The position numbers were made by a program, and so were the translations under genes. A stretch of 64,000 nucleotides of DNA, taken from assembly GCA_037431425.1 (NCBI GenBank), contig GCA_037431425.1_4129.1; one strand, written 5' to 3'. Shown one piece after another: positions 26,976-51,157 of this stretch; the first letter of the stretch is position 1, and each line of letters opens with the position of its first letter. The notes beneath the pieces were generated by a model. It ran no database searches. It was given only the letters and a program-made list of their open reading frames with translations, and was not told the DNA's origin. Origin of the DNA: a phage.

Positions 26976-26976
26976 G

Positions 26977-30698: not shown

Positions 30699-30712
30699 AT
30701 AGAGGACAATAT

Positions 30713-31120: not shown

Positions 31121-31693
31121 ATGAATCGTAAAGGTCGTTTTAAGGTATCAAAGAAGAACAAAAGTTCTAGATTTAAGCCTATAGTTTTAACCGTTAAAGC
31201 CAAAGCGGAATTAACTGCACTTAGTAAAAAGATCATTTCATCTAAGATTAAAGTATCATACGTAAATTCGGTAAAATATCGAAAGGTTAAACCACAAGAC
31301 CTACTCATTTCACTTATATTTGAACGTAATGATTTTGAGATATCAGTGGATGATTATAGAGCCTATAATGCTGGTTTCATTAATGTTACTTGTACTACAG
31401 AACTAACTGAATTAGAACATTTGTCATGTATAGTAAATCTCGATAAAGGTGTAGTGAAATACCACTTTGTACATTTTACTAATATTAATGATGGAAAGGG
31501 TGTACAATCCAGAACTATAGTACCTACATGTGATGTGACTAAATTATCAAAGCTCAATGACGAAGAATATTTTCAAGAAAGTACTGTAACTGAATATATA
31601 GATGAAATTATAGCAACTTACAAAGAATGTATATGGGTTTTAAATGCAATGAAGCCTAAATTATGTTTGATGAATATTGTACGTGATTTATGA
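31121..31693 (+). CDS. hypothetical basic protein with C-terminal DEEYFQESTV module
   Basis: Track ORF; SD gaggaaa. Confidence 0.55.
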   Translation: MNRKGRFKVSKKNKSSRFKPIVLTVKAKAELTALSKKIISSKIKVSYVNSVKYRKVKPQDLLISLIFERNDFEISVDDYRAYNAGFINVTCTTELTELEHLSCIVNLDKGVVKYHFVHFTNINDGKGVQSRTIVPTCDVTKLSKLNDEEYFQESTVTEYIDEIIATYKECIWVLNAMKPKLCLMNIVRDL

Positions 31694-34052: not shown

Positions 34053-34694
34053 ATGACAAAGCAAGAAATATTCAAAACTTTAATTGACATATTACGTCCA
34101 TCTAAATTACGGTGTGCAATGGAGTTTGATATTCCTTATGCTGAACAGGTAATCTTTCCACAAGTGAAATCGGCAGGACTTACGTTACTTGGTATGGGAA
34201 TGTACTCTGTAGTAGTTGAACATAAAAACTATCCAGGTCGTGCATTTAAAGTAACCACGTCACGATGGGATGGTTTTCGTGCTTATGCAAAGTACTGCAT
34301 TGAAAACGCAGGAACTAAATTTCTTCCTGTTATATACAGTGCAAATGAGCAAGGAAACTTCGGCTGGTATGAGATGGATAAGTATTACCCTATAATTAAA
34401 CAAAAAAATAATTACGATGATTTTGTGAGTACTAAAATTGGTGATTTATATTCGTATGCACATGCTGGACAATATGCTTCATCAATATCTAATATGCGTG
34501 GTAGTCCAGAAGAAATTGCTATTGCAACAGTTGTTGCGAACATAATGAAAGAGTTTCATGGTCGTTTTGTACCAGACATTCATTCCAGAAATGTAATGAT
34601 GGACAAAGATGGTAACGTATATATCACAGATCCTATTTCATGTGATGTACGGAGAGAAATACCAATCACACAAGAAGACCCAGTTTTTTATTGA
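34053..34694 (+). CDS. putative protein kinase-like protein
   Basis: Track ORF 34020..34694 (start inside promoter -10; ATG 34053 preferred); DIHSRNVMMDKDGNVYITDP resembles a kinase catalytic loop plus DFG-like segment; GRAFKV resembles the VAIK lysine strand. Confidence 0.55.
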   Translation: MTKQEIFKTLIDILRPSKLRCAMEFDIPYAEQVIFPQVKSAGLTLLGMGMYSVVVEHKNYPGRAFKVTTSRWDGFRAYAKYCIENAGTKFLPVIYSANEQGNFGWYEMDKYYPIIKQKNNYDDFVSTKIGDLYSYAHAGQYASSISNMRGSPEEIAIATVVANIMKEFHGRFVPDIHSRNVMMDKDGNVYITDPISCDVRREIPITQEDPVFY

Positions 34695-34757
34695 CAGAAC
34701 TTTAATACTGTTATATTATTTAAAAATGATAAACGAATTGCATCTAAGGGTAAAATC

Positions 34758-35039
34758 ATGCGTTCATTTGAAAACTTAATCGGAAAAAACCGTTTAGCAG
34801 AAATTGAAGCAGATGTAAAAGAATTGTCACAATCAAAAAGTTATATCCACTTAGATGAACTTTTTATTAAGTACGGTGAAATTGGATTTAAGACACTATT
34901 TGTTTTTACTTTGAAAGTACACAGTTTAAAGTACTTCGATTTAAGTTATAAAAATGGTCAACCGAATCTATATCATATGTATTATCTCAAGAATATAGAA
35001 GAAGCTCATTCCTTATTTTCTGAATATCTGAAGGTATAA
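34758..35039 (+). CDS. hypothetical small protein
   Basis: Track ORF. Confidence 0.5.
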   Translation: MRSFENLIGKNRLAEIEADVKELSQSKSYIHLDELFIKYGEIGFKTLFVFTLKVHSLKYFDLSYKNGQPNLYHMYYLKNIEEAHSLFSEYLKV

Positions 35040-35040: not shown

Positions 35041-35379
35041 ATGGAACAATATTTTGAATTAATTAATAAAGTGTCATTCTATGTAGTGTCATTGACGTGG
35101 GTTTATTTCATGTTTTGCTACATTATTGCATTCTTCCGATATACTACTTTATATGAACGTATCTATTATGATGCACCAATTTCATTCTTGGTGTTCTGTG
35201 CATGTACGTGGGGAATATTAGAAGTACTGATATGTGGATATAGAACTGATGAATTAAATCTGGTATCGGTATTGACTGGGTTATCACTTGGTGTTATGAT
35301 ATCTTTCTTTCCAGTATGGTTGTTCTTTGAACTGATCCATCGCATTGATGTATGGCGTTCTAATATCCCTGAAAAATAA
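35041..35379 (+). CDS. small two-helix membrane protein, RxxIPE family, copy A1
   Basis: Track ORF; hydrophobic segments; C-terminal WRSNIPEK. Confidence 0.55.
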   Translation: MEQYFELINKVSFYVVSLTWVYFMFCYIIAFFRYTTLYERIYYDAPISFLVFCACTWGILEVLICGYRTDELNLVSVLTGLSLGVMISFFPVWLFFELIHRIDVWRSNIPEK

Positions 35380-35388
35380 GGATTGATA

Positions 35389-35730
35389 ATGATTTTCTAT
35401 ACTAATGCGTTTGCTTATGCTATTGCATCAATCTACATTGTGTACTTCTTATTTGGTGGAGTACTGTACTTCTTTAAGTACAAAACATTGTTTAACCGAA
35501 TGTATCCAAATCACCCAATTGTAGTAGTACTTTTGATAATTTCTGTTGCTCATATCATTGTAGAAACAATAATGGGTATCAGTGCAGTACATTACAGTCT
35601 AGGTACTATTGTAATTATTACTATGATCATAGCATACATTTTAGTAATGGGTTCTGGTTTATTTGGGAATGTAGCAATGAAAATGTATAATCGAATCAAA
35701 ACATTACGTGATAATCTACCGGAGCGTTGA
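35389..35730 (+). CDS. small two-helix membrane protein, RxxIPE family, copy A2
   Basis: Track ORF 35383..35730; ATG 35389 after aagga; C-terminal LRDNLPER. Confidence 0.55.
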   Translation: MIFYTNAFAYAIASIYIVYFLFGGVLYFFKYKTLFNRMYPNHPIVVVLLIISVAHIIVETIMGISAVHYSLGTIVIITMIIAYILVMGSGLFGNVAMKMYNRIKTLRDNLPER

Positions 35731-35731
35731 G

Positions 35732-36076
35732 TTGTATAATTTAAATTTAATATCATATATCATAACAACAATGTTTACTTTCTATGCCTTTGTTGGTATA
35801 ATCCTACTGTACTTTAAATTTTATAAAGTCTTTGACCGTTTATTTCCATCATTGGAACATGAATTCTTAGTGGTGATGTACATATGTTTAACGTGTATGT
35901 CTACATTTTTCACTGTATTTGATGGTATCATCGGTATTAAAGCTGAAGATCCAAATGGAAGTACACTTGTTGCCTTTATCCTGGTAGGATTCTTCGGCAC
36001 TTATATCACTTTCATTTCAACATGGTCTGTGGTTGATTATCTCATTAGATTACGAGATAAAATGCCAAATCGATAG
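35732..36076 (+). CDS. small two-helix membrane protein, RxxIPE family, copy A3
   Basis: Track ORF 35708..36076; TTG start at 35732 inferred from paralog alignment and ggag SD; C-terminal LRDKMPNR. Confidence 0.45.
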   Translation: MYNLNLISYIITTMFTFYAFVGIILLYFKFYKVFDRLFPSLEHEFLVVMYICLTCMSTFFTVFDGIIGIKAEDPNGSTLVAFILVGFFGTYITFISTWSVVDYLIRLRDKMPNR

Positions 36077-36085
36077 GGGATTGCT

Positions 36086-36343
36086 ATGTTTGCATTGCGT
36101 AATAAAAATACAAAAGAGATTCTATGTATCTCAGCAGTATGGGATTGTGCAGGAAGTGAAATGATCCTCGAAGAAGGTTCAGGTGATTGTGTTTATGTTG
36201 TTCAGGATCGTCGTGAACTTGAATCATTACTTGATGAATTTAATGCTGGTGGTAATCCTAAAAGTACTGAATTCCCTGTGATTATTAATCCAGCACCACC
36301 TGGTTCTTATGAAATTCTACAACTGTGGGAGATGGATAAGTAA
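36086..36343 (+). CDS. hypothetical small protein
   Basis: Track ORF. Confidence 0.5.
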   Translation: MFALRNKNTKEILCISAVWDCAGSEMILEEGSGDCVYVVQDRRELESLLDEFNAGGNPKSTEFPVIINPAPPGSYEILQLWEMDK

Positions 36344-36723
36344 TGCGTCAAATGTACAAAGTAACCGAGCTAAACAAGCGTCTGATTAAACAATCAATGT
36401 TCGAGGACAAAGAGTCTTATTATAACTTTAAACGTGCTGTAGAGGCTGCTATCCATATCCAGAAGCTTAAAGATAGTGGTTGTATTATTCTCGAAAATGG
36501 TTCTGATGTTGTAACGGATGACTTTAGTGTAGCGTTTGATGTTTCACCAGATGGTATACTATCAATGCCACGATTAGGAACTGGAAACATGACTGTTTGG
36601 GTCGGCTTCACTATGGGTAATGTACCAGACACGGTGTATGTAGATGATATTGAGTTGAAAGAAAGCTTCAAAAACTTATCTTATCTTGAACCACAATACG
36701 CACATGAAATGAATTTATTTTGA
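36343..36723 (+). CDS. hypothetical protein
   Basis: Track ORF; ATGA-type overlap. Confidence 0.5.
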   Translation: MRQMYKVTELNKRLIKQSMFEDKESYYNFKRAVEAAIHIQKLKDSGCIILENGSDVVTDDFSVAFDVSPDGILSMPRLGTGNMTVWVGFTMGNVPDTVYVDDIELKESFKNLSYLEPQYAHEMNLF

Positions 36724-36724
36724 G

Positions 36725-36752
36725 TTGACAAACAGATTTAGTACTGTATAAT
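36725..36752 (+). promoter_or_regulatory. sigma70-type promoter (TTGACA-N16-TATAAT)
   Basis: Consensus; TAGTACTG immediately upstream of -10. Confidence 0.7.
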
Positions 36753-36799
36753 GTTTACCAACGGGATGAATTTCCCATCCCTACTATCGAGGAATTACC

Positions 36800-37354
36800 A
36801 TGATTACTTTTAAGAAAACAGCTAACCATATCCATGAAATTTACATTAACGGTCATAAAGCTGGGCTTCTTCGCTTACTGGCACATCATCCTAATGTAGA
36901 CGTATCTGATAATGAACCTAAAGATTGGCGTGTCTTTTTCTTTGGAAAGTACAGTGATTTTCAAGTATCAAATCTGAAGAAGATTCGTTCAGTATGCACG
37001 TTAACTGAAATTAAAGAAAAGTTAGCAGAAGCACTGAAAACCAATCCAGATGGAATCCTTCCTCCTGATAACTTTGTAGATAAAGGTTATGCTTTAGCTC
37101 ATTTCAAAGATGGTACTATTCAATCTATTAGTACTGAATATGAATATCAATGGACTGAGTACTTCACTTATGGCTCACCTAATACATTGATGGCTTCACG
37201 TAGTAAATTGGAAGAAGTACTGACACGTATTAATGAACGCGAGCGTCAGTTCTATGACAAACCAGAAATGTGGAGTTCAACTCACATTGACCGTATTGAC
37301 TATGTTATTATGACTCCAATCTTTAACACTGCTTACTATGATTCTTTGAAATAA
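36800..37354 (+). CDS. hypothetical protein
   Basis: Track ORF downstream of promoter 36725..36752; SD gaggaa. Confidence 0.6.
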   Translation: MITFKKTANHIHEIYINGHKAGLLRLLAHHPNVDVSDNEPKDWRVFFFGKYSDFQVSNLKKIRSVCTLTEIKEKLAEALKTNPDGILPPDNFVDKGYALAHFKDGTIQSISTEYEYQWTEYFTYGSPNTLMASRSKLEEVLTRINERERQFYDKPEMWSSTHIDRIDYVIMTPIFNTAYYDSLK

Positions 37355-37365
37355 GGATAACTTAT

Positions 37366-37542
37366 ATGAAACTACGTACTCGTAATCGCCTGATGGATGC
37401 ACTGTACCATGAACAGTATTCATTAAATGAAGTAAAGAGACAGTTAATGTATACATATCAGTTACCTGCCCGTGCTGCGAAACAACGTGCTAAAGAATTA
37501 CTGAAAGAAGCTATCGAGTACTGGGAGTCTGATTCGTATTAA
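37366..37542 (+). CDS. hypothetical small protein (58 aa)
   Basis: Manually found; SD aaggata upstream. Confidence 0.4.
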   Translation: MKLRTRNRLMDALYHEQYSLNEVKRQLMYTYQLPARAAKQRAKELLKEAIEYWESDSY

Positions 37543-37581
37543 TATTACGTGATATGTCACATTAATTAAGTGAGACGATAA

Positions 37582-37833
37582 ATGAAAATTTTATTAGTTC
37601 TAATACTACTAATTGTTTTACCATTTACTTTAGTATCTCCTGAACTTGCATGGAATGTGTTTGTGTACTTGGTATGTACTATTGCGGTAAATGGTATCTT
37701 GTTCTTAGTTCTATTCATAAATGGAATAGGACACGGTGGTGGATGGACCAGTACTGCTAATATTGTACATAAAACCACTATGTCTTTATTTGTAGTGTGG
37801 AATTTATTCTGGACTTGGTTTGTGTTCTTCTAA
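37582..37833 (+). CDS. hypothetical membrane protein
   Basis: Track ORF; hydrophobic throughout. Confidence 0.5.
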   Translation: MKILLVLILLIVLPFTLVSPELAWNVFVYLVCTIAVNGILFLVLFINGIGHGGGWTSTANIVHKTTMSLFVVWNLFWTWFVFF

Positions 37834-37841
37834 TTAAAAAT

Positions 37842-38213
37842 ATGAATATAGATTTGAAAGGTTCAACACGAACTGTTATCCTTATTGGTGATTATGCTAT
37901 TAAGATTCCAACCTTTAAAAGTTGGAAGTTATTCCTAACTGGAATGATAGCGAACCTCAATGAACGTTCATGGATGCAGTACTCCAATCGTAGTGATAGT
38001 GGAATATCCCCTACGCTGTGGTCCTCTCGTACTGGTTTAATAACAATACAGAAACGTTGTAAACCTGTACAACATAGGGGTTTATTTTGGGTTGAGTTGT
38101 GTGCGTTGGCATCAAAATCAGAGTTGAATACTGACTTCTTCTATTCAGATGCGAAGCCAGAAAACTTTGGGTATCTGTGTGGTAAGTTGGTTAAACTTGA
38201 TTATGGAGATTAA
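37842..38213 (+). CDS. putative small protein kinase-like protein
   Basis: Track ORF 37797..38213 trimmed to ATG 37842; SDAKPENFG...LVKLDYGD resembles a kinase catalytic loop plus DFG; IGDYAIKIP is VAIK-like. Confidence 0.5.
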   Translation: MNIDLKGSTRTVILIGDYAIKIPTFKSWKLFLTGMIANLNERSWMQYSNRSDSGISPTLWSSRTGLITIQKRCKPVQHRGLFWVELCALASKSELNTDFFYSDAKPENFGYLCGKLVKLDYGD

Positions 38214-38214
38214 T

Positions 38215-38484
38215 ATGTACGCATTGTATAATAAAGAAAAGAAACGATTTGCTAAGGTTGAAATTTCGATTGATACATTTGACATGTTGGAGTACTGTAT
38301 TGTAACGGATTTATATGCTAACTTGTATTACGTTCTTGATGACGTATCAGTACTGCAACGATTGCTTGAGAATTCCAAAAGTCAATGCCAGGGCATCTAT
38401 GATGGTTCATCTTATGAAACACCTGAGTGTTCCTACGGCTATCTGGACGGGTATGAGATTGTGAAGTTGGGGATTGTTGAATAA
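38215..38484 (+). CDS. hypothetical small protein
   Basis: Track ORF 38149..38484; ATG 38215 after ggagatt is preferred. Confidence 0.45.
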   Translation: MYALYNKEKKRFAKVEISIDTFDMLEYCIVTDLYANLYYVLDDVSVLQRLLENSKSQCQGIYDGSSYETPECSYGYLDGYEIVKLGIVE

Positions 38485-38496
38485 ATGGATTAAACA

Positions 38497-38910
38497 ATGA
38501 AGAAGTGTATCACGTGTAATATTGAAAAAGACATTAGTGAATTTGGTATAAGAAAAGATACTGGGAAACATAGAAATACATGCAAAGGTTGTAGTAATAT
38601 TACCAGTAAGAAAACCAGAAATAAAAAAACTGATGTCAAAAAACTTGAAGAAATCAAAAGAAAAAATAAAGATTTCATGTCCAGAGTTAAATCATTTTAT
38701 GGTTGTAGTATTTGTATGATGAAGTATCCAGAATGTTTAGACTTTCATCATCTTGATCCGAATATCAAAGAACATACACCAAGTTCTATGTTCAGTAAAA
38801 GTCGAGATGCTATCAAAGATGAAATTCGAAAGTGTATGATTCTTTGTTCTAATCATCATCGCATGGTCCATTCTGGAAGACTATGCTTAATTGAAAGAAA
38901 AAAGGGTTGA
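38497..38910 (+). CDS. HNH endonuclease-like protein (homing-endonuclease-like)
   Basis: Track ORF; CxxC...CxxC and DFHHLDP...CSNHHRMVH fit an HNH/zinc-finger motif. Confidence 0.6.
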   Translation: MKKCITCNIEKDISEFGIRKDTGKHRNTCKGCSNITSKKTRNKKTDVKKLEEIKRKNKDFMSRVKSFYGCSICMMKYPECLDFHHLDPNIKEHTPSSMFSKSRDAIKDEIRKCMILCSNHHRMVHSGRLCLIERKKG

Positions 38911-38936
38911 CTTCTGTCAGCCCTTTTTGCTATAAT
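38904..38936 (+). promoter_or_regulatory. PeSL-like module 4
   Basis: GGGTTGACTTCTGTCAGCCC + T5 + GCTATAAT; downstream roughly 25 bp identical to module 6. Confidence 0.65.
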
Positions 38937-38966
38937 CATTTCATCGAAGCTTGAGGATATTAAAAA

Positions 38967-39449
38967 ATGAACTACTTAGATTTGATTAACTCATATGTAA
39001 TTAGCCCATATATTAACGATGAAAGTATTAAATGTGTAGTATCAGTTGAGGATCACCCAACTGGTGCATTAAAACTATTTGGTGCAGGTCAAATTAACAA
39101 CCGCAACGGGTATACATTTGAATATTTACCATCAAGTGATAAGTTTGGATGTTATGACCACGAAACAAATAAGGGATATATTTGGGGAACACACTTAAGT
39201 ATTGCACAATCTTCGCTTTTCGAAGACCATAATGGGTATATGTGGCGATATTTAGGTGCAGTACTGCTTGATATCGCCCGTAGGTATAAGAAGTGTATAA
39301 CATTAACTTATACTCATACAAATGAATATAAAAACGAAGTTCAAGTTATTGATGAGGATTTTTTTAAAAATATTCCTTATATTGATTTTAACTGTCAAAA
39401 TGGTTATGCTACATACCCAGCAAGTTTTGAAGGTGAAAGATACTTTTAA
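38967..39449 (+). CDS. hypothetical protein
   Basis: Track ORF downstream of PeSL-like promoter; SD gagga. Confidence 0.6.
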   Translation: MNYLDLINSYVISPYINDESIKCVVSVEDHPTGALKLFGAGQINNRNGYTFEYLPSSDKFGCYDHETNKGYIWGTHLSIAQSSLFEDHNGYMWRYLGAVLLDIARRYKKCITLTYTHTNEYKNEVQVIDEDFFKNIPYIDFNCQNGYATYPASFEGERYF

Positions 39450-39541
39450 AAAGAGTTGATTTAAAATGTATAAGTGATATACTTATCATATCAAGACGAA
39501 ACAACAACCAACATGTAAACGCTACTAATTAGGAGACACAC

Positions 39542-39952
39542 ATGATCAACAAACATTTCGCAGTTTCCAAAACTGTAACCATCGATAATGAATGGGAAAT
39601 TACCATTCTAAATGATACGGCTCGTGGACTACTGGCAGAGAATATTCTCCAGAAGTATATTGACTGTGAATCTGAGTTGATCATTCATGAACGCACTAAA
39701 TTTCTTCTAATTGGTGGAAAGAAATGTAAAGTTCTGGTATTCACCGACAAAATGACTCGTGCAGATATCATTACTAAATTGGTTAGTTCTTCACGTCATC
39801 GTCCGGGTGTTAATAGATCAATTGATGAGATTAAAGAAATGAAGCCAGGTGATTTATTCATTGTTGCAGGGTTTGATTCAAAAACAAGAAAAATGAGTAT
39901 TTCAGAAATGTATACTAATGCTGAAATGCGTAACAAATTCTTTTCTAACTAA
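39542..39952 (+). CDS. hypothetical protein
   Basis: Track ORF; SD aggaga. Confidence 0.55.
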   Translation: MINKHFAVSKTVTIDNEWEITILNDTARGLLAENILQKYIDCESELIIHERTKFLLIGGKKCKVLVFTDKMTRADIITKLVSSSRHRPGVNRSIDEIKEMKPGDLFIVAGFDSKTRKMSISEMYTNAEMRNKFFSN

Positions 39953-39987
39953 TCAACCCATGTAGTGTAATCTTATACACATTTTAG

Positions 39988-41205
39988 ATGGATAAAAATA
40001 TGATCTTCGAAACTGAAAAAACATTACTTGAAACTTACACTTTGGATAATCTAGTTAAACTTAACCTTGAACGACCAGATATCCAACGCAATTGGCAATG
40101 GAAAAATAATAACCAAAACAATCTTATTATTTCCATTCTAAAGAATTCTCCAATTGGTCAATTTTTAGTATGGAATGAAACTAGTTCAAATACGATGTAC
40201 ATCACTGATGGTCGTCATCGCTATACAGTAATTTCAAACTTCATGAACAATAAATTCCCAGTCACTGTTAGAACTGAAGATGGGACTAAGGATTATTATT
40301 ATGGTTCTGATGATCCAGTAGAAGAAGAAAGCATTTCACTGAAACTTGGTGGAAAGCGTAAAACATGGGATTTTTTATCTAAAGAAGAGCGTGATGCTTT
40401 TCGTGCAAAGGAAGTATCAGTAACATTCGTTCATACAGACGATGCTGAAAAGATTTCAGATATGTTTATTGCAATTAATACTGCATCATCTAATCTATGT
40501 AAAGTTGATTTGTTAGTATGTAAGCACCACACAAATACATATATGAAACGTATTGATAAGCTATTTTCAATTGAGTTTGGCAAAGATGAACCCATGGCAG
40601 CATTAGTGAGTGATTTTTACCGTGCAATCGGTCATTGTTGTGTTAATGGTAATCATGAGAAACACTTATCGAAGCTTAAAGCTAACCCTAAAGTACAGAA
40701 GCGTGAATTTTTTGAAATGTTCTTTATGGTCAAAGCGTTCGCGAAATTATGTGCTAGTGCACTAGATGGTAAGCTAAACTCATACCGTATGCCAAAGATG
40801 AACCAACAAATTGAAGAAGCAATTATTAGTACTGAATCTCTTAGTGAGAAACATGCTGATGCTGATTTTGTTCAGTTTGTTAATGCAGTTCGTGAGATGA
40901 ATTTGGTATCACCTGTAAAATCTGCACAAAAATTTCAATTTATCCATGAAGATATGAAGAATACCTTTAATAAGAGACTCTTTTGTATTTTGATGGGATT
41001 GTTTTATGCTTATGGTACAAGATTGCCATTACATTTTCGTGATGTATGGGGTGACATTTATAATGAAATGTCAGAAAAAAGTTCAGAACTACCTACTAAT
41101 GGAACCGATAGTCCTTCCGCAATTTTAGCTGGCATTGAAATGATTGAACCATACTTTAGTTCAGCATTTAATAATATTCCATTGAGTGCTTACGTGGGAA
41201 AGTGA
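39988..41205 (+). CDS. DUF262/ParB-like nuclease-domain protein (GmrSD N-terminal-like)
   Basis: N-terminal PDIQRNWQW and DGRHR motifs resemble the DUF262 signature (QR..W and DGQQR); stop overlaps the GTG start of the next HNH ORF. Confidence 0.6.
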   Translation: MDKNMIFETEKTLLETYTLDNLVKLNLERPDIQRNWQWKNNNQNNLIISILKNSPIGQFLVWNETSSNTMYITDGRHRYTVISNFMNNKFPVTVRTEDGTKDYYYGSDDPVEEESISLKLGGKRKTWDFLSKEERDAFRAKEVSVTFVHTDDAEKISDMFIAINTASSNLCKVDLLVCKHHTNTYMKRIDKLFSIEFGKDEPMAALVSDFYRAIGHCCVNGNHEKHLSKLKANPKVQKREFFEMFFMVKAFAKLCASALDGKLNSYRMPKMNQQIEEAIISTESLSEKHADADFVQFVNAVREMNLVSPVKSAQKFQFIHEDMKNTFNKRLFCILMGLFYAYGTRLPLHFRDVWGDIYNEMSEKSSELPTNGTDSPSAILAGIEMIEPYFSSAFNNIPLSAYVGK

Positions 41206-41414
41206 AAAAACGTGGTGTACTAAATACACCACAAAAACAATATCTTTTGAAAAGATATTCTTTGTGTTATCTTTGTGGACAGAAGATATCGGATTCAGAT
41301 ATACTACATTTTGACCATGTTCAATCATTAAAAGATGGTGGTAGTAATGAATTAAGTAATATACGACCAACGCACTCCATTTGTAATTTACGTAAAGGTG
41401 CTAAGAGTATGTAA
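41202..41414 (+). CDS. small HNH endonuclease
   Basis: CxxC followed by HFDHVQSLKDGGSNELSNIRPTHSICNLRKG (HNH); GTGA overlap with upstream stop suggests translational coupling. Confidence 0.65.
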   Translation: MKKRGVLNTPQKQYLLKRYSLCYLCGQKISDSDILHFDHVQSLKDGGSNELSNIRPTHSICNLRKGAKSM

Positions 41415-41463
41415 AGCTAATACTCCCCAAAGATGGGGAGTATATATAATTAAAGGGATTTAT

Positions 41464-42300
41464 ATGAGTATTAAAAATAAATTAGATCAGTATTATACAA
41501 ATCCAGAGTATGCTAAAAAATGTTATACTAAATCATTAGAGTTTATTTCGTCTCGAATGGACATTAATTCATCTTATTATATGGAGCCTTGTGTTGGGAC
41601 TGGTTCGTTTTATCTACAGTTTCCTGAATCCCGTCGATTTGGGTGTGACATTGATCCGGTACATCTTGATGAAAATGTTATCCATTCCGATTTTTTACTT
41701 GAATTTGGTATCAATGCAAGAAGTAAAGGTGAACCAATACTTGTTATAAGTAATCCACCTTTTGGGAAAATTTCTTCTTTAGCCATTAAGTTTTTTAATA
41801 AATGTGCATCAATGCCTGAAGTGAAATATATTTGTTTTATTGTCCCTATGACATTTCGAAAAGCAGCAACACAAAATAAACTCAATGAGATGTTTCACCT
41901 GGTATTAGATGAAGATTCACCAAATGACGCTTTTATACTGCACGGAGAACCACATCATGTACCATGCGTATTTCAGATATGGGAACGTAGGGATACAGTT
42001 CGTGAGAAACATGAGATTAAGAACAAATCAGACTATTTCGACTATTGTACTAAGGAAGAGGCTGATGTTTTTATAAAACGTGTAGGAACCAAAGCAGGTG
42101 AGTATGCCGAGCCAGGGAAAGAACACAAAGATGCAAGTATGTACTACATTAAAACTAAGTATGTTGATGAAATCATTAAGGTTTTGAAAAGTAAAGATTA
42201 CCTTGATGAGATAAAACGTATACGTAAAACCACAGCAGGGGTATACTGTGTGTCCAAATCTGAAATCGTTCTTAATATTGAAAAACGTTTGAATCTTTGA
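41464..42300 (+). CDS. N6-adenine DNA methyltransferase (NPPF-type)
   Basis: Track ORF 41398..42300 trimmed to ATG 41464 with SD aaaggga; motif I EPCVGTGSF and motif IV SNPPFGK. Confidence 0.7.
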   Translation: MSIKNKLDQYYTNPEYAKKCYTKSLEFISSRMDINSSYYMEPCVGTGSFYLQFPESRRFGCDIDPVHLDENVIHSDFLLEFGINARSKGEPILVISNPPFGKISSLAIKFFNKCASMPEVKYICFIVPMTFRKAATQNKLNEMFHLVLDEDSPNDAFILHGEPHHVPCVFQIWERRDTVREKHEIKNKSDYFDYCTKEEADVFIKRVGTKAGEYAEPGKEHKDASMYYIKTKYVDEIIKVLKSKDYLDEIKRIRKTTAGVYCVSKSEIVLNIEKRLNL

Positions 42301-42308
42301 AAATTATA

Positions 42309-42340
42309 GGTTGACTTCGGTCAGCCTTTATTGTTATAAT
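42309..42340 (+). promoter_or_regulatory. PeSL-like module 5 (upstream of denV)
   Basis: GGTTGACTTCGGTCAGCC + TTTATTG + TTATAAT. Confidence 0.6.
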
Positions 42341-42368
42341 CATTTTATATAACCAAGAGGATGATTAC

Positions 42369-42872
42369 ATGACACGCATTAATTTAGTACACGTTAAAGA
42401 ACTTGCTGACCAACATTTGATGGCTGAATATCGTGAACTTCCACGGGTGTTCGGTGCTGTACAAAAACACGTTCAAGCACGTAAGCGTGTCCGTGATTTT
42501 AAAATTAACAGTACTTATCTGTTAGGTTCAGGCCATGTGACATTCTTCTACGACAAGTTACTGTACTTACAAAAGCGTCATGTTGAGATTGTTAACGAAT
42601 GTTTGCGTCGTGGTATGAAGATTCAAAACACGGAAGTAAACGACATCAGCGGCTTCCCTGATGAGTTTTGTAATGACTACGTACCATCGGAGTCAGAGAT
42701 TAAAATGTCTCGTGACCGTTTGATTGAGAAGCTCCAGATGAAGCCTAAGTGGTATAAGTTTACTGCTGTTGAAATTCCACAGTACGTTAAAGATATGCAG
42801 AACGTAAAATCTAGTACTGATATGTTCGAAGAAATTGAAGAGCAAATCAAAGATGAAATGAATAATTATTAA
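42369..42872 (+). CDS. denV: endonuclease V, pyrimidine-dimer DNA glycosylase/AP lyase
   Basis: N-terminal half [35 protein letters not shown]...[10 protein letters not shown] closely matches T4 DenV as recalled; flanked by PeSL-like modules. Confidence 0.9.
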
Positions 42873-42876
42873 AGGT

Positions 42877-42911
42877 AAGGGTTGACTTCGGTCAACCCTT
42901 TTTGCTATAAT
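42877..42911 (+). promoter_or_regulatory. PeSL-like module 6 (downstream of denV)
   Basis: AAGGGTTGACTTCGGTCAACCCTT perfect 10-bp stem + T-run + GCTATAAT. Confidence 0.65.
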
Positions 42912-42939
42912 CATTTCATCAACTACAGAGGGTAACGAA

Positions 42940-43713
42940 ATGAACCGTACAGAAAAAGCACTTCAAATCGAAAAAAACTTCAACTCCATGATGGCAGCAC
43001 TGGAATGTCTTCTGGATACGCAAACTAACTCCATCAATTCTTTGATTGTATCAGGAAAAGGTGGTGTTGGTAAAACTTACAACGTTGACCAGCGTTTACG
43101 GAAAGCGGATGATAACTTTGAAATTGACTACAAAAAAATCAGTGGTAAAGTAACTACTGTGGGTCTGTACGAAGCACTGTATCGTTCACGTCATGCTGCT
43201 TCTGTACTGTTGCTGGATGATGTTGATATCTTCTCTGATGAGACTAACATTGACTTACTCAAAGCTGTATTGGATACATCTGAAAAGCGTGTAGTATCAT
43301 ATGCAACATCTGCTAAGTACCTTGAACAGCAGGGTATTCCTAAGCAGTTTGAATTCCGTGGTAAGGTTATTTTCCTGACGAACAAAAACCTGTCACAGAT
43401 TGCTAAAGGTAAAAGTAGTTTAGCACCACACATCGATGCACTGATTACTCGTAGCATCTTTGTTGATCTGCAACTGTTTACAAATGAAGAAGTAATGATT
43501 CACATTGAAAATATTATGAACAAAACAAACATCCTTGAAAACAATGGTGTTAACAAAAATGGTTGCAAAGCAATTCTGAATTGGATGCTGAACAATGAAG
43601 ATCGTCTGCGTAGCCCATCACTGCGTATGCCAGTACTGATCGCTGGTTTGTATAATAAATTTCCATACGACTGGGAGTCTATGGCAGAGAATATGTTCCT
43701 TGAGAAAATTTAA
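42940..43713 (+). CDS. P-loop NTPase
   Basis: Walker A SGKGGVGKT and Walker B-like VLLLDDVD; SD gagggtaa. Confidence 0.6.
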   Translation: MNRTEKALQIEKNFNSMMAALECLLDTQTNSINSLIVSGKGGVGKTYNVDQRLRKADDNFEIDYKKISGKVTTVGLYEALYRSRHAASVLLLDDVDIFSDETNIDLLKAVLDTSEKRVVSYATSAKYLEQQGIPKQFEFRGKVIFLTNKNLSQIAKGKSSLAPHIDALITRSIFVDLQLFTNEEVMIHIENIMNKTNILENNGVNKNGCKAILNWMLNNEDRLRSPSLRMPVLIAGLYNKFPYDWESMAENMFLEKI

Positions 43714-43775
43714 TTATATGTGTTGACGATTCTACTATAGTGTAGTTCTATAATACTTCATACTGGAGATACGAT

Positions 43776-44117
43776 ATGCTTGAGTTTTTTAATTCAAATA
43801 CAATGCTTGGTATTACTTTAATTTACATGTTTGTATTTTTGTTTTATCATTCAATTGTAATTAGTCTGTGGTATTTTAAAAGGAAAGTTGTTTTTAAATT
43901 GTATTCGTATGATAATGTATTCTTAGTTGTATATAGTATTGTACAAGGTGGGTTTATTTTATTTGGTATTATGACTTATTTCATTTATCGATTGGAAATT
44001 GATAATACACCACACATTACACAATATGTTGTGTTTTCGGGACTAATCGTGTGGTTGTTGACATGTGTCGTGTACTTTATTATTAAAGCTCGTGACAAAA
44101 TTAAAGGGGAATTCTAA
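43776..44117 (+). CDS. small two-helix membrane protein, RxKI family, copy B1
   Basis: Track ORF; first of eight tandem paralogs; C-terminal ARDKIKGEF. Confidence 0.55.
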   Translation: MLEFFNSNTMLGITLIYMFVFLFYHSIVISLWYFKRKVVFKLYSYDNVFLVVYSIVQGGFILFGIMTYFIYRLEIDNTPHITQYVVFSGLIVWLLTCVVYFIIKARDKIKGEF

Positions 44118-44455
44118 TGTTAACATTTTTTCAGTCAGATACAATGATTAGTATTACGTTGATTTATCTGTTTGGATTTTTCTTTTATCATGCACTAGTT
44201 GTAGTACTATGGTATTTTAAAAAGAATATAGTTTTCAAACTGTATCCTAAAGGAAACGTTTCATTACTTCTTTTCACTATTATCCAAGGTATCTTTGCAA
44301 TTTTTGGTATTACTGCACATTTAATTTATTGTGCTAATCCACATTTGAACTCAATATCACAATACATTGTATTTTTTGGATTACTAATTTGGGTACTAAT
44401 ATACGTAACTAATCTCATCATTAATGGTAGAGCTAAAATTCACGGGGACTTTTAA
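44117..44455 (+). CDS. small two-helix membrane protein, copy B2
   Basis: Tandem paralog; N-terminus nearly identical to B1; ATGA-type junction. Confidence 0.55.
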   Translation: MLTFFQSDTMISITLIYLFGFFFYHALVVVLWYFKKNIVFKLYPKGNVSLLLFTIIQGIFAIFGITAHLIYCANPHLNSISQYIVFFGLLIWVLIYVTNLIINGRAKIHGDF

Positions 44456-44802
44456 TGTTTGAATCTTATCTTGACTTTTTAAGGAATAGTCCAGTAGCAC
44501 ACTCACTTGCTGGGATTGTTCTATCAGGCTATATCACATTTTGGGTAGTTATGTTTCTAGGATGGTATTTTAAACGACAATTCTATAAGCGTAACGGTGA
44601 AGATTTTATGAATTCTGCTATTAATCAATCGTTGTTTGCATCAACATTGATAGCATCAATTGTAGCAACACTCACTGGTGCAGTTCTACCAGCATTCGCC
44701 GCAGTTTACGGCACACTTGGAGTGGTATGTTTATCTTTTATATTGATCATTAAACTTTGTTGTGTTATGATTGAACTTCGAAATAAGATACCGGAGGAAT
44801 GA
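44455..44802 (+). CDS. small membrane protein, copy B3
   Basis: Tandem paralog; C-terminal LRNKIPEE. Confidence 0.55.
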   Translation: MFESYLDFLRNSPVAHSLAGIVLSGYITFWVVMFLGWYFKRQFYKRNGEDFMNSAINQSLFASTLIASIVATLTGAVLPAFAAVYGTLGVVCLSFILIIKLCCVMIELRNKIPEE

Positions 44803-45137
44803 TGGAGTATTTTATTGATTTACTGCCGTGGTATATGAAAGTGAGTATTTTATACTATATTATTAGTACTGGATTCTACTTCCTGATGTGGTTTTTTAAA
44901 CGACCAATTTCAGTGTACATCGCTGATAACATGCTGCAATTAAAATTACAAGCATGGTTTTATATGGCGATGTTTATGCCTATTATTCACTACTCAATGA
45001 TTAGTCTAGGTTTACGTTCTAATGGTGAACCAATTGTATTAGTATTCTATTGGGCTTCAACTCTAGTATATGTCGGTTTGTTGTTATACCCAATCGTTCA
45101 TATATTACGTGCTAAAGTTCCTGATGCGAGGTACTAA
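44799..45137 (+). CDS. small membrane protein, copy B4
   Basis: Tandem paralog; C-terminal LRAKVPDARY. Confidence 0.55.
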   Translation: MMEYFIDLLPWYMKVSILYYIISTGFYFLMWFFKRPISVYIADNMLQLKLQAWFYMAMFMPIIHYSMISLGLRSNGEPIVLVFYWASTLVYVGLLLYPIVHILRAKVPDARY

Positions 45138-45451
45138 TGGATATAGTAACATTGATTTACACGTTGTATTCATTCTATTTTATTATGTGTTGGATTGGAT
45201 TTTTATTTGTACTGAAGACGTTTGATTATGTTGAAAGACAGATAAAAGAATTTTGTATTCCTTTTATTGGGTCAACCATAATTAGTATTACTTGTTTGTA
45301 TTATTTGGTATGTGATCCACCAGATAACACTGCAATGATTGACTTTATGTTAGCACCAACTACTGTTATTTTTTTATGTAGTCTGCTGCCACCTATTAGT
45401 CGTGGGTTAGCAGAATTTAGACGCAAACAAAAGCTTAAACGAGGGATGTAA
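45137..45451 (+). CDS. small membrane protein, copy B5
   Basis: Tandem paralog; overlapping start/stop. Confidence 0.5.
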   Translation: MDIVTLIYTLYSFYFIMCWIGFLFVLKTFDYVERQIKEFCIPFIGSTIISITCLYYLVCDPPDNTAMIDFMLAPTTVIFLCSLLPPISRGLAEFRRKQKLKRGM

Positions 45452-45819
45452 TGGAAATCACACTTATTATATTAACTTCTATGTTGTTTATTAGTACAGT
45501 TGTTATTATTGGCAAGTTCTTCTGTGTATCCTTCTTGGAAACCGTATATGATGAAATTGCAGATGATTATGAATTAGAAGCAGGATTTTTTATTACGTAT
45601 TGGGTTAGTTTATTACTGCTTATCACAGTATGGGTTTTGCATATATTCCAATGGGGTATGGTTGGTGATGATCCATTACTGGGAATTATTTGTGCGACAT
45701 TTGGGCTACTGACTGGTGCTGCCCACAATCTGATAGTAATTGTGCAAACTATAAAATGCGTATTAGTTCCACATTTTCAGAGAATGCACCAAAACATTAA
45801 ACGCCGCAAACGAGGTTAA
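45451..45819 (+). CDS. small membrane protein, copy B6
   Basis: Tandem paralog. Confidence 0.5.
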   Translation: MEITLIILTSMLFISTVVIIGKFFCVSFLETVYDEIADDYELEAGFFITYWVSLLLLITVWVLHIFQWGMVGDDPLLGIICATFGLLTGAAHNLIVIVQTIKCVLVPHFQRMHQNIKRRKRG

Positions 45820-45820
45820 T

Positions 45821-46183
45821 ATGAACGGGATAGAGTTATCTGTGTTTGGTCAATCGCTAATAATTATTAATACTTTCTTTTTCTCACTTAATGCATTTAT
45901 GTGTATTGGGAAGTATTTTCATAAACGACCATTATCAAATATATATGATGTAATTCAAACGAGATATAGTCCAGCATATACTATAGTTATTAGCAGTTTC
46001 AATTTTGGTTTTGTTTTATTAGTAATTGGAATGTTAACATCAACGTTGAATATCATCACATTCGGTCTTATGATATGTTCATTGGCATTAACATTAGTTA
46101 TATGTTGTTTAGTACTACACCTTATGGTTCTATTATATTTAAAGATATATGCAATTCACCACCGCTTAGGTACGAGGAAATGA
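45821..46183 (+). CDS. small membrane protein, copy B7
   Basis: Tandem paralog. Confidence 0.5.
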   Translation: MNGIELSVFGQSLIIINTFFFSLNAFMCIGKYFHKRPLSNIYDVIQTRYSPAYTIVISSFNFGFVLLVIGMLTSTLNIITFGLMICSLALTLVICCLVLHLMVLLYLKIYAIHHRLGTRK

Positions 46184-46184
46184 T

Positions 46185-46556
46185 ATGAGTTATCGTGAAG
46201 TATTTTCTATAATTTCAATTATTATGTTCAGTGCTGGGACATTGATTTGGTTATTATACTTTTTCTGTATTAATCCAGTGTATAATATGTTATGCAATAT
46301 TAAATCAAGTACTGGCTATATGACCTTTATGATCTTTATGGGATATTATTGTCTAAGCATTTTAGGTGTTTTTTTGGTTGTTATATTTGATCTAGGACCA
46401 AACAGGGACGGTCTGCAAATGTATGAGTTAATAACTATGTTTGGGTGTATGATACCAACTGCACTAATGTTTGTAGCTATTGGTGCTGGATGTATAAAGT
46501 TATACAATTATTTAAAATCCATTCATCATTACATTCATAATAAACGTATGTCCTAA
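46185..46556 (+). CDS. small membrane protein, copy B8
   Basis: Tandem paralog. Confidence 0.5.
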   Translation: MSYREVFSIISIIMFSAGTLIWLLYFFCINPVYNMLCNIKSSTGYMTFMIFMGYYCLSILGVFLVVIFDLGPNRDGLQMYELITMFGCMIPTALMFVAIGAGCIKLYNYLKSIHHYIHNKRMS

Positions 46557-46601
46557 TAAAAATCCAGTACTATTAAGTACTGGATTATTTGAGGTAGAGC
46601 A

Positions 46602-47290: not shown

Positions 47291-48436
47291 TTATTTTTTC
47301 CAAGGAAGTAACGAAGTTGGTATTTTGATAGGTATATTTGATGAAACAACATCAGGAAAATTTGCATCCCCACAAACATACAAATTATCGTCTTCGTCTA
47401 TCAATAATATATAGTTGTAACTTCTACAAAACCCATTTAAACCTCTTCCCTCTAATGCAGATAAATTTATTTCAGTGAATTGTGTTATATATGTTTCATT
47501 TGAACCAACACCACATTGACCATTAGCATTTATACCACAAGTAAGCAATTTATTATTGTTTTGAATTATACATGATGGTCCAGCAAGGTTTGTACCTAGT
47601 TCACCTACAACGTTGACCTCACCTTGTAATGATAAATTTGGAATCACTGTACTCATTGGGACACGAGATGTATTTCCAACACCTGCTTGTCCTGAACCAT
47701 TAGTGGATGCTACTTTAACAGTACCGTCATTAAGAAAAATATAAGATGTTTCGATTGTATTAACTGCTTGAGTAGCTGATGTTATTGACGTATCCTGTTT
47801 GAATTTGAGTACATTTGTTGTTGTCGAACCAGAGATATATGTAGCACCTGCGTACCAATATGTTCCATCCTGGAGTACTAAACCAGTACTTCTAATTGAA
47901 CACCCAGCACTTCGAACATTTTCTATATGACTATATGTAAAGGTTGATACAATTGAAGATTCACCATTACCAAATACCCCACCAGTACCTGCACCACAGA
48001 AAAACCATTTACCGTTTTTCAAAAATACACGCATACAAGCAGAAATAACCACACTATCAATATCACTTGCAGTTACACCAAAATCGGTAAAGAAATGAGT
48101 TATATCAATCCAATTGCCACCAGTATTTGATGGGAGATGTGGAATTACAACTCTAGTCCCTGTGTACCAGATTGTATCATCATCTTTAATAACAAGCGTA
48201 CCTTGAACACCCCCCCAATACCTGGTTACATTAGTATTAACAAGTGTCCACTCATTAGATGATTCCGTTGAGCCATTACCACCTTGACCATATGATGATG
48301 AACCGCACCAGTATAAATTGCCATTTTTATTTAAATAAAATTTTGCATCAGCCGAACATTGTAATCTGTATTTGAATACAGTTTTTGGTGCTGGTGCAAT
48401 ATTTGCATACTTAATCATTCTTCCAAAAGGTAACAT
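47291..48436 (-). CDS. RCC1-like repeat (beta-propeller-type) protein, paralog 1
   Basis: N-terminus MLPFGRMIKYANIAP shared by all seven; Gly/Ser/Thr/Asn-rich with GxNxxGQxG-type repeats; own SD gagggag and TATAAT upstream. Confidence 0.7.
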   Translation of the reverse strand: MLPFGRMIKYANIAPAPKTVFKYRLQCSADAKFYLNKNGNLYWCGSSSYGQGGNGSTESSNEWTLVNTNVTRYWGGVQGTLVIKDDDTIWYTGTRVVIPHLPSNTGGNWIDITHFFTDFGVTASDIDSVVISACMRVFLKNGKWFFCGAGTGGVFGNGESSIVSTFTYSHIENVRSAGCSIRSTGLVLQDGTYWYAGATYISGSTTTNVLKFKQDTSITSATQAVNTIETSYIFLNDGTVKVASTNGSGQAGVGNTSRVPMSTVIPNLSLQGEVNVVGELGTNLAGPSCIIQNNNKLLTCGINANGQCGVGSNETYITQFTEINLSALEGRGLNGFCRSYNYILLIDEDDNLYVCGDANFPDVVSSNIPIKIPTSLLPWKK

Positions 48437-48484
48437 AATTTCTCTCCCTCATTCATTATACTGTATTTAACCCAATTAAGAAAA

Positions 48485-48503
48485 GCCAGTATCAAGTACT
48501 GGT
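48485..48503 (-). terminator. intergenic hairpin between RCC1-like paralogs
   Basis: CCAGTA-TCAAG-TACTGG preceded by A-run on + (T-run on - strand). Confidence 0.55.
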
Positions 48504-48509
48504 ATTTTA

Positions 48510-49859: not shown

Positions 49860-49906
49860 ATTTCCCTCCTTTATTCATTATACTATATTTAATACTAAAA
49901 GAAAAA

Positions 49907-49925
49907 GCCAGTACAGAGTACTGGC
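49907..49925 (-). terminator. intergenic hairpin between RCC1-like paralogs
   Basis: GCCAGTAC-AGA-GTACTGGC; T-run on - strand. Confidence 0.6.
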
Positions 49926-49931
49926 ATTATT

Positions 49932-51150: not shown

Positions 51151-51157
51151 TTTCTTA

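Follow-up and report, generated by a model that had tools for sequence, protein, structure and literature searches.

Eleven array genes of a Rak2-like jumbo phage probably encode one divergent family of three-helix inner-membrane proteins

Two operon-like arrays of small genes in a jumbo coliphage very probably encode a single ancient, very divergent family of inner-membrane proteins that is confined to Rak2-like jumbo phages. Its members are about 110 amino acids (aa) long and are predicted to have three transmembrane (TM) helices, a periplasmic N-terminus, a basic first loop and C-terminal tail in the cytoplasm, and two motifs. We put the probability of this reading at roughly 90%. The window, which is the whole 64,000-nucleotide stretch of DNA analysed, derives from an Asteriusvirus of the 121Q/PBECO4 group (98.9% identity to phage ph0011) and is AT-rich, with a GC content of about 33%. 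The original prediction placed eleven open reading frames (ORFs) of 104-123 aa on one strand, three at 35041-36076 and eight at 43776-46556, and we recovered all of them with these lengths. We refer to them as m1 to m11 (Table 1). The true start of m2 is probably the ATG at 35389 (113 aa), which is the start used in P0013. For m3, the TTG at 35732 is more likely than the GTG at 35708 from which the ORF was originally drawn, because a GGAG Shine-Dalgarno sequence is present (within the last codons of m2) and relatives are annotated from the TTG.

Table 1. The two arrays and their flanking features, by position in the window
Feature	Position	Strand	Description
Promoter-like site	34691..34719	+	Putative; sigma-70 type, TTGACA-17-TATTAT (11/12); 39 nt upstream of 93-aa gene
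93-aa gene	34758..35039	+	Non-membrane; abuts array 1, stop 1 nt before m1 start
m1	35041..35379	+	112 aa; 3-TM; subfamily A; array 1; phrog_19285
m2	35383..35730	+	115 aa from TTG 35383; 3-TM; subfamily A; C-terminus LRDNLPER
m3	35732..36076	+	114 aa from TTG 35732; 3-TM; subfamily A; C-terminus LRDKMPNR
Hairpin with promoter-like elements	42877..42911	+	Terminator-plus-promoter cassette; GC-rich hairpin containing TTGACT, TG-TATAAT 18 nt later; 29 nt upstream of NrdC.10-like gene
NrdC.10-like gene	42940..43713	+	P-loop ATPase, 257 aa; 40% identity to T4 NrdC.10; phrog_1250; weak AAA_16 match
m4	43776..44117	+	113 aa; 3-TM; subfamily A; phrog_19454
m5	44117..44455	+	112 aa; 3-TM; subfamily A; RaK2 gp224 is the orthologous type
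m6	44455..44802	+	115 aa; 3-TM; subfamily A; phrog_19046; consensus motifs GWYFKR, LRNKIPEE
m7	44799..45137	+	112 aa; 3-TM; subfamily A; phrog_27396; motifs MWFFKRP, LRAKVPDARY; type of RaK2 gp223
m8	45137..45451	+	104 aa; 3-TM; separate subfamily; phrog_33258; C-terminus EFRRKQKLKRGM; type of RaK2 gp222
m9	45451..45819	+	122 aa; 3-TM; subfamily B; phrog_26405
m10	45821..46183	+	120 aa; 3-TM; subfamily B; no PHROG match
m11	46185..46556	+	123 aa; 3-TM; subfamily B; phrog_27618; type of RaK2 gp220
Palindromic hairpin	46561..46586		Perfect 11-bp stem; directly after m11 stop codon

Paralogy of the eleven array proteins

Judged by their dN/dS against orthologues (0.05-0.48 across the eleven genes) and their conservation across phage genera, all eleven ORFs are real genes. 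The same dN/dS values indicate purifying selection, somewhat weaker than in the genes around them. The low GC content of the window inflates the number of hydrophobic ORFs, and some members are unannotated in several relatives, as would be expected of chance ORFs or functionless, decaying remnants. We regard that explanation as extremely improbable. dN/dS is well below 1 in 11/11 genes, the reading frames are intact across genera, every start has a Shine-Dalgarno sequence, and the motifs described below are specific and conserved; the first three of these observations effectively refute it.

Paralogy of all eleven proteins was not visible in pairwise comparisons, where BLAST and shallow hhalign joined only m1, m2 and m3 and, separately, m4 and m5, but it was upheld by iterative profile search. 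m4 and m5 are 51% identical and do have the near-identical N-termini originally described. We ran jackhmmer at an inclusion E-value of 1e-4 with the arrays of RaK2, JNE01, Hallingskeid and three metagenomic relatives added, and it was the addition of these relatives from other jumbo phages that allowed full paralogy to be recovered. A search from any single member found 11/11 and recruited 93-101 array genes in total, while no other ORF in the window and none of 852 reversed decoys matched at E<=1e-4. The family HMM scored the eleven members at 50-86 bits and the next window ORF at 6.9 bits.

Single-linkage clustering of BLAST matches through intermediates joined m1-m7 and m9-m11 and left m8 alone, giving three subfamilies. 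When a whole BLAST-linked subfamily was left out of the model, its members still outscored 488-500 of 500 topology-preserving segment shuffles, although the alignment columns in this test derived from a search that had included the targets. The weakest links were m4 (12/500), m10 (9/500) and m11 (6/500), and profile support within subfamily A was weakest for m7.

Among 1.84 billion representative proteins, searched exhaustively, only 27 clusters match the family, all with both motifs. Except for one short fragment, these were 89-123 aa long and aligned nearly end to end. PHROGs distributes the eleven proteins among seven families of unknown function and leaves one protein, m10, unmatched. PHROGs 19285 (m1-m3), 19454 (m4-m5), 19046 (m6), 27396 (m7), 33258 (m8), 26405 (m9) and 27618 (m11) contain the same proteins (E 1e-44 to 1e-62), with a weak match of m3 to phrog_19285 (E 0.0027). 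Whereas PHROGs keeps these families apart, our analysis unites them in a single superfamily for which topology and motifs are defined. The family had no match to any known family or fold.

Predicted topology and conserved motifs

The array proteins had been described as two-helix proteins, which is incorrect: Kyte-Doolittle windows gave three hydrophobic segments in 11/11, and AlphaFold2 models of m6 and m9 agree. The AlphaFold2 model of m6 has helices at residues 13-38, 55-74 and 80-110 (pLDDT 77), and that of m9 has three long helices at low confidence (pLDDT 64). TM prediction, proposed as a check, classed all eleven as integral inner-membrane proteins, and the topology is predicted to be N-out/C-in. 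The short N-terminus is acidic, and loop 1 and the C-tail are basic. Lysine and arginine residues total 77 in inside segments versus 9 in outside segments (N-terminus 4, loop 1 32, loop 2 5, C-tail 45).

Alignment confirmed the shared basic C-terminal motif, here written (L/F)(R/H)xK(I/L). Its second position is R in m1-m8 and H in m9-m11, an exchange that also separates the clear paralogues gp226 and gp225 of RaK2. Part of the extreme tail of the motif (P-E-E, G-E/D, R-G) falls on the Shine-Dalgarno sequence of the gene that follows, where constraint may act on the nucleotides and not on the protein. A second motif, (W/L)(Y/F)FK(R/K), lies directly after helix 1 on the cytoplasmic side. The full WYFK(R/K) form occurs in m4-m7, with near variants in m1-m3 and m10 and degenerate forms in m8, m9 and m11. 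Its F is invariant in 11/11 and in a 34-sequence alignment, and no other position carries as much information across 99 members. All strongly conserved residues of the family are predicted to be cytoplasmic. Divergence within the genus is fastest in helices 2 and 3, where 24-26% of residues change, versus 12-14% in helix 1 and loop 1.

Age and operon context of the arrays

Relatives of these arrays, with 7-11 copies per phage, occur in RaK2 (Klebsiella), JNE01, Hallingskeid (Erwinia) and the three metagenomic relatives. The m9 type has the widest conservation, occurring in all of the sampled lineages; the m4/5, m7, m8 and m11 types are common to RaK2, where gene order is largely the same. As read from the sequences, the arrays are ancient and not recent amplifications. 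With such age and purifying selection, the suggestion that amplification reflects selection for diversity is not supported. Turnover is seen in single members: m4 arose recently by duplication of m5 and has been lost in several relatives, m8 is split in 121Q, and a Salmonella phage has a truncated m6. Mosaic alleles also occur among relatives.

The 93-aa gene upstream of array 1 keeps its position in all relatives and is probably co-transcribed with the array. The cassette upstream of the NrdC.10-like gene is likely the promoter of array 2, and the hairpin after m11 looks like the terminator that closes it; the annotation of phage G17 has a terminator at the equivalent position. Across the + strand from 1 to 47.3 kb we counted 28 near-consensus sigma-70 promoters, versus 2.7+-1.6 in shuffles, with sites upstream of both arrays. 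The genome paper on phage CBB assigns such a region in Rak2-like phages to early functions and host takeover (PMC5259590), and the promoter-rich setting suggests that the eleven genes are probably expressed early in infection. Family proteins are absent from the 62 virion proteins of phAPEC6 (PMC7247149 Table 1). Neighbouring genes include a T7-type host-shutoff kinase, small unknown genes, the ATPase and RCC1-like genes.

Adjacent array genes are spaced by -4 to +1 nt, each with its Shine-Dalgarno sequence inside the preceding gene, and on sequence grounds array 2 is translationally coupled. This arrangement favours a fixed stoichiometry, as would suit subunits of one hetero-oligomeric inner-membrane complex: a channel, transporter or membrane-remodelling scaffold, possibly with the NrdC.10-like ATPase docked on the cytoplasmic motifs. 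The ATPase gene directly precedes array 2 in every Rak2-like relative examined, and the first small gene lies within about 1 nt of it in RaK2, Hallingskeid, L016 and L019. The retention of paralogue types and order across genera, and the cytoplasmic exposure of the only strongly conserved residues, also fit a complex. However, individual phages with single members lost, frameshifted, truncated or duplicated are viable, array 1 has no ATPase neighbour, the nrdC.10 homologues of T4, XaC1 and PA5oct are not accompanied by such an array, and in this window 62 nt with a promoter-like sequence lie between the ATPase gene and m4. We consider such a complex rather unlikely.

Possible functions and closest known systems

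The reading that we favour, tentatively and by analogy, is that the arrays encode a battery of early accessory inner-membrane effectors, which may block genome entry in the manner of Imm (superinfection exclusion). The early region, the predicted membrane location and the absence from the virion fit early accessory membrane factors of this kind, and the accessory character is apparent from the loss, splitting or duplication of single members in individual isolates. Host RNA polymerase would produce the proteins early, and they would insert into the inner membrane. The conserved cytoplasmic motifs could provide the fold or anchoring that all members share, and the rapidly evolving helices 2 and 3 could direct individual paralogues to separate targets within the membrane. 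Prime candidates would be the membrane-inserting ejection proteins of competing phages, so that entry of a rival genome would be blocked. The model for this activity is T4 Imm, a small early inner-membrane protein with a periplasmic N-terminus that binds the incoming tape-measure protein and thereby blocks genome translocation (bioRxiv 10.64898/2026.03.06.709160).

Several observations weigh against the effector reading. Comparisons of sequence, profile and fold connect the family neither with Imm, Sp or other exclusion proteins nor with defence or anti-defence families. Conserved residues in the cytoplasm are uninformative about a periplasmic or intramembrane target, and weak constraint may be all that lies behind the rapid divergence of helices 2 and 3. 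The ancient types, mostly kept order and coupling suit a multi-subunit complex at least as well. The relative Hallingskeid, moreover, already encodes a separate protein annotated as "superinfection immunity protein", which lies upstream of its array at a distance of a few kb.

The evidence from the early-type region, predicted membrane location, accessory behaviour and mosaic alleles applies equally to effectors directed at host membrane proteins, such as transporters, proteases, the division machinery, or membrane-bound effectors of abortive infection or defence. Every paralogue would then disable a different host target and serve anti-defence or host takeover. The nearby host-shutoff kinase gene and a nearby variable island of DNA-modification and restriction-related genes are in keeping with this idea, which we judge somewhat less probable than exclusion. 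Against it, the family shows no similarity to characterised anti-defence proteins or PADLOC models (only two chance-level matches to the latter, E 0.016-0.025). Its types are also common to Escherichia, Klebsiella and Erwinia phages, and the host targets would therefore have to be widely conserved.

We compared the family with the closest known systems. Class I holins of the lambda S105 type (about 105 aa) share its architecture, with three TM helices, N-out/C-in topology and a basic cytoplasmic C-terminus; at about 105-120 aa with a charged C-tail, the array proteins conform to this plan (PMC9636201). In this phage group the endolysin carries a transmembrane domain at its N-terminus (PMC5259590), and the array proteins might control lysis as holins, antiholins or pinholin-like proteins acting with this signal-anchor-release (SAR) type endolysin of Rak2-like phages. 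We think this improbable. The family matches no holin family in Pfam (E<=1), NCBIfam or PHROGs, and no lysin or spanin genes lie near the arrays; the endolysin homologue is 121Q gp532, distant from gp207-232. The promoter-like sequences before the arrays are of the sigma-70 early type, not late, and eleven holins in arrays would lack precedent.

As an early accessory membrane protein, T4 Imm is the closest analogue in function. As the array proteins are predicted to be, it is a small phage inner-membrane protein of early, N-out type, and it acts in the membrane on the incoming tape-measure protein. It differs in being 83 aa long and single-copy, with another helix arrangement and no motifs in common with the family, and no family member matched the Pfam model Imm_superinfect at E<=1. 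Certain plasmid-encoded bacterial proteins offer a further comparison: they are about 100-115 aa long, have three TM helices and many divergent specificities, and their specificity is set by intramembrane helix-helix contacts. They differ from the family in their reported topology and in not being arranged in arrays, and the family has no Pfam match to them. The preprint on T4 Imm draws the same analogy to these plasmid-encoded proteins (bioRxiv 10.64898/2026.03.06.709160).

Gene structure, topology and signature motifs

The original prediction described eleven paralogous two-helix membrane proteins that share a basic C-terminal motif. All eleven plus-strand ORFs are present where they had been placed, three in array 1 (m1-m3) and eight in array 2 (m4-m11). 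Judged against relatives and by Shine-Dalgarno placement, m3 more likely starts at the TTG at 35732 (114 aa), and m2 probably starts at the ATG at 35389 (113 aa). The description of two helices did not hold: hydropathy gives three hydrophobic segments in all eleven members. An AlphaFold2 model of m6, computed from a 34-sequence family alignment, contains long helices at 13-38, 55-74 and 80-110 together with two short ones (mean pLDDT 77). The m9 model, from a shallow alignment, also has three long helices at low confidence (pLDDT 64). Lysines and arginines summed over the eleven proteins number 4 in the N-terminus, 32 in loop 1, 5 in loop 2 and 45 in the C-tail. By the positive-inside rule, this distribution predicts an N-out/C-in topology.

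Information content across 99 members peaks directly after helix 1 and at the C-terminus. The first peak has the consensus (L/G)W(Y/F)FK(R/K)P and the second (L/F)RxKIP(E/D). The alignment thus upholds the predicted C-terminal basic motif, with H in place of R in m9-m11. The same swap occurs between the obvious paralogues gp226 (EFRNKLPD) and gp225 (EFHNKLPD) of RaK2. Both motifs would be cytoplasmic under the predicted topology. The end of the C-terminal motif overlaps the Shine-Dalgarno sequence of the next gene (GGAGGA in P-E-E, GAGG in A-R-Y and R-G, GGGG in G-E/D), so its last residues may be constrained at the DNA level.

Evidence for a single family

Comparisons within the genus joined few of the proteins. 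Pairwise BLAST supported only m1 with m2 and m3, and m4 with m5 (51% identity). The eleven proteins are split over seven PHROGs of unknown function, with m10 in none. Shallow, within-genus orthologue profiles from nine Asteriusviruses, compared using hhalign, joined only m1-3 and m4-5. With merged profiles, array 1 matched m4-m6 at 87% probability (E 4e-6, 87 co-linear columns), and m8-m11 were not reached. We discounted an hhalign match of the family to m7 (99.2%) as circular because the alignment already held m7 and m7-type sequences.

The decisive step in recovering the paralogy of all eleven was the addition of more distant relatives. An exhaustive search of 1.84 billion representative proteins with the m1-m7 profile returned only 27 clusters. 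Except for one short fragment, their proteins are 89-123 aa long and match near end to end, and all contain both motifs. They derive from Klebsiella phage RaK2 and its relatives, the divergent Asteriusvirus JNE01 (with Turkey5 and A4), Erwinia phage Hallingskeid and uncultured phages of ~320-350 kb. Homology searches with m6 and m9 went no further than close relatives among the Asteriusviruses.

For jackhmmer (inclusion E 1e-4), we pooled all ORFs of 50 aa or longer in the window and in nine related loci and added every sequence in reverse as a decoy. Starting from any single member, the search gathered all eleven and 93-101 array genes in total; it drew in none of the reversed decoys at E<=1e-4 and none of the remaining window ORFs. 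The eleven members score 50-86 bits against the family HMM, and the next window ORF scores 6.9 bits. Single linkage by BLAST (E<=1e-4, via intermediates) resolves subfamilies A (m1-m7, 53 sequences), B (m9-m11, 28) and C (m8, 8). In leave-subfamily-out tests, window members scored above 488-500 of 500 decoys whose residues were shuffled inside each topological segment. The weakest were m4, m10 and m11, whose scores were equalled by 12, 9 and 6 of the 500 decoys, respectively. Paralogy of the eleven is therefore borne out by jackhmmer and the leave-subfamily-out tests, not by pairwise BLAST. These sequence comparisons, with alignment columns from a search that included the targets, indicate that the eleven proteins are one superfamily.

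One non-membrane ORF had entered through drift in the first jackhmmer run on a small database. It fell to E 0.008 once decoys were added, was absent from the wider, stricter run and was rejected. Three clusters of small membrane ORFs elsewhere in the window, some with lipoprotein-like signals (e.g. ...LTAC), are also non-members by the family HMM, against which no window ORF outside the eleven exceeds 6.9 bits.

Genomic setting and expression signals

Positions of the arrays and of the surrounding features in the window
Feature	Coordinates	Strand	Basis or remark
Early-type region	1-47300	+	predicted from density of promoter-like sites
Small membrane ORF clusters	16901-19166, 24568-25456, 27868-29669		non-members
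Non-membrane ORF	30342-30698		rejected
Sigma-70-type promoter-like site for g93 (93-aa gene)/array 1	34691-34719	+	consensus match
g93	34758-35039		
Array 1, m1-m3	35041-36076	+	
Variable island	38497-42300		
GmrSD_N/DndB-like protein	39988-41205		within the island
Repeated hairpin cassettes	38907-38936, 42308-42340, 42877-42911		
Sigma-70-type promoter-like site for nrdC.10-like gene/array 2	42882-42911	+	consensus match
NrdC.10-like ATPase	42940-43713		
Array 2, m4-m11	43776-46556	+	
RCC1-like / WD40_RLD paralogues	47291-55969	-	
Tandem ~60-aa genes	56699-60326	+	

Successive genes in array 2 overlap or abut (-4 to +1 nt). A perfect hairpin (46561-46586) follows m11, and the G17 record has a terminator annotated at the same position. 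The gene for a P-loop protein (256-257 aa, 40% identical to T4 NrdC.10) always lies upstream of array 2. The order of ATPase then array is found in Asteriusviruses, RaK2, Hallingskeid and two metagenomic relatives, often with a gap of just 1 nt; T4, Xanthomonas phage XaC1 and Pseudomonas phage PA5oct have an nrdC.10 homologue but lack the array. A hetero-oligomeric complex, possibly working with this ATPase, is a doubtful reading of the arrays. It is unlikely that they encode subunits of a phage-built inner-membrane machine, driven or organised by the ATPase, instead of independent factors, although an ordered, translationally coupled array kept across genera speaks for it. In this reading, the conserved WYFK and RxKI motifs on the cytoplasmic side would be docking sites for the ATPase, and the assembly might be a channel or membrane-remodelling complex used in jumbo-phage infection.

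The 93-aa gene and a T7-type protein kinase gene precede array 1. The plus strand of the first 47.3 kb holds 28 sigma-70 sites that match the consensus at 11 or 12 of its 12 positions; dinucleotide shuffles give 2.7+-1.6. Most are intergenic, 29-97 nt before start codons. The minus strand of the whole window has only 2. This density of promoter-like sites marks a putative early-type region that includes both arrays. A candidate promoter shortly upstream of m4 (TTGACG ... TATAAT) was rejected; its 20-nt spacer is not canonical for sigma-70. In the related phage CBB, RpoD-like promoters clustered between short ORFs were read as marking an early, host-takeover region (PMC5259590). Lysis control is quite improbable as a role for the arrays: the proteins match class I holin architecture exactly (PMC9636201), but there are eleven of them, their genes sit behind early-type promoters, and the endolysin is encoded far away. 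The array proteins are absent from the list of 62 phAPEC6 virion proteins, in which mass spectrometry could easily miss small hydrophobic proteins, and the adjacent RCC1-like proteins are present (PMC7247149 Table 1).

Repeated cassettes in the window consist of a GC-rich hairpin holding TTGACT, with TG-TATAAT 18 nt on. They are predicted to combine a terminator and a promoter in a single unit. We take them to resemble promoter-early stem-loops, proposed agents of modular shuffling in T4-type phages.

The variable island between the arrays is largely missing in most relatives. It encodes an HNH endonuclease, the GmrSD_N/DndB-like protein, a small HNH protein and an N6-adenine methyltransferase. 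Beyond array 2 stand seven tandem RCC1-like / WD40_RLD paralogues (368-449 aa), all starting MLPF(G/A/V)R, and most relatives have a similar array after the membrane-protein genes. A further paralogue array comprises about a dozen tandem genes with a common N-terminal (E/K)EYY..KL motif. Outside the window, phage ph0011 has ~30 successive ~70-aa genes with overlapping stops and starts (24757-31258 of comparison locus L021). The genome has several such long tandem arrays of small genes, in line with jumbo genomes growing by tandem duplication.

Distribution, turnover and possible function

Escherichia phage ph0011 matches the 11.5-kb array region at 98.9% identity. A further ~38 Asteriusvirus jumbo phages, including 121Q, PBECO4, phAPEC6 and G17, match it at 87-92% identity across 36-67% of its length. 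Records of these relatives label the array genes 'hypothetical protein' nearly throughout. In CRJP21 (locus L003), the m1 orthologue is named 'endonuclease V' and the m5-m7 orthologues are named 'regulator of chromosome condensation'. These names look displaced ~15 genes from their true proteins, which suggests an artefact of a shifted annotation table. The arrays go undescribed in the genus genome papers that we searched (fEgEco12, Sharanji, phAPEC6, CBB). Jumbo phages are for the most part 'dark matter', and 83% of phAPEC6 genes lack an assigned function.

Phages of Escherichia, Klebsiella and Erwinia have 7-11 family copies per genome. The count for this phage covers the window and the first 50 kb of ph0011, where no family members were found. 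The m9 type occurs in all lineages sampled. Types m4/5, m7, m8 and m11 are common to the window phage and RaK2 in largely the same order, and m6, m10 and the array 1 types are restricted to Asteriusviruses. m4 is missing at 5 of 10 related loci (WPEC3, fEgEco12, WPEC5, PBECO4 and one metagenomic relative). m8 is duplicated in JNE01 and split into two ORFs in 121Q (gp228/gp229, L001 12156-12471), and the m6 orthologue of Salmonella phage SD-2_S15 is cut to 66 aa (L005 6682-6882); the split and the truncation may each reflect either genuine loss or an error in sequencing.

The alleles form a mosaic, with m1 matching UE-S1 at 97% and WPEC3 at 76% identity, and m2 showing the opposite pattern. For m11, identity spans 61-87%. 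Change inside the genus is fastest in helices 2 and 3 and the C-tail (23-26% of positions) and slowest in helix 1 and loop 1 (12-14%). Against five relatives, dN/dS is 0.05-0.48 for array genes (mostly 0.13-0.34) and 0.01-0.28 for neighbouring genes (mostly 0.06-0.18). These values indicate that the array genes are under purifying but somewhat relaxed selection.

Searches of Pfam, NCBIfam, PADLOC and PDB sequences, and Foldseek against PDB and BFVD, gave no matches. The anatomy fits early accessory membrane effectors best, because the proteins are small, predicted N-out inner-membrane proteins of an early-type region that appear non-virion, individually dispensable and mosaic. Host-directed effectors or anti-defence factors are a possible rival reading, less probable than the exclusion battery proposed below.

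Eight separate unknowns, seven PHROGs and one unmatched protein, are brought together as a newly defined, lineage-specific multigene family of phage membrane proteins. Its predicted topology, two diagnostic motifs and conserved address beside the NrdC.10-like ATPase make it directly testable. Should the proteins prove to be exclusion or anti-defence factors, they would represent a large, old arsenal that bears on phage-phage competition and the design of phage-therapy cocktails. If they instead form a complex with the ATPase, this would be the first functional context for NrdC.10, a widespread T4-type gene. In mechanism, the nearest precedent is T4 Imm: within the membrane it binds the tape-measure protein of the incoming phage and stops genome translocation (bioRxiv 10.64898/2026.03.06.709160). 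The anatomy and this precedent lead us to favour, tentatively and with a probability of roughly 0.3, an Imm-like exclusion battery or, more broadly, a set of intramembrane binders with paralogue-specific targets.
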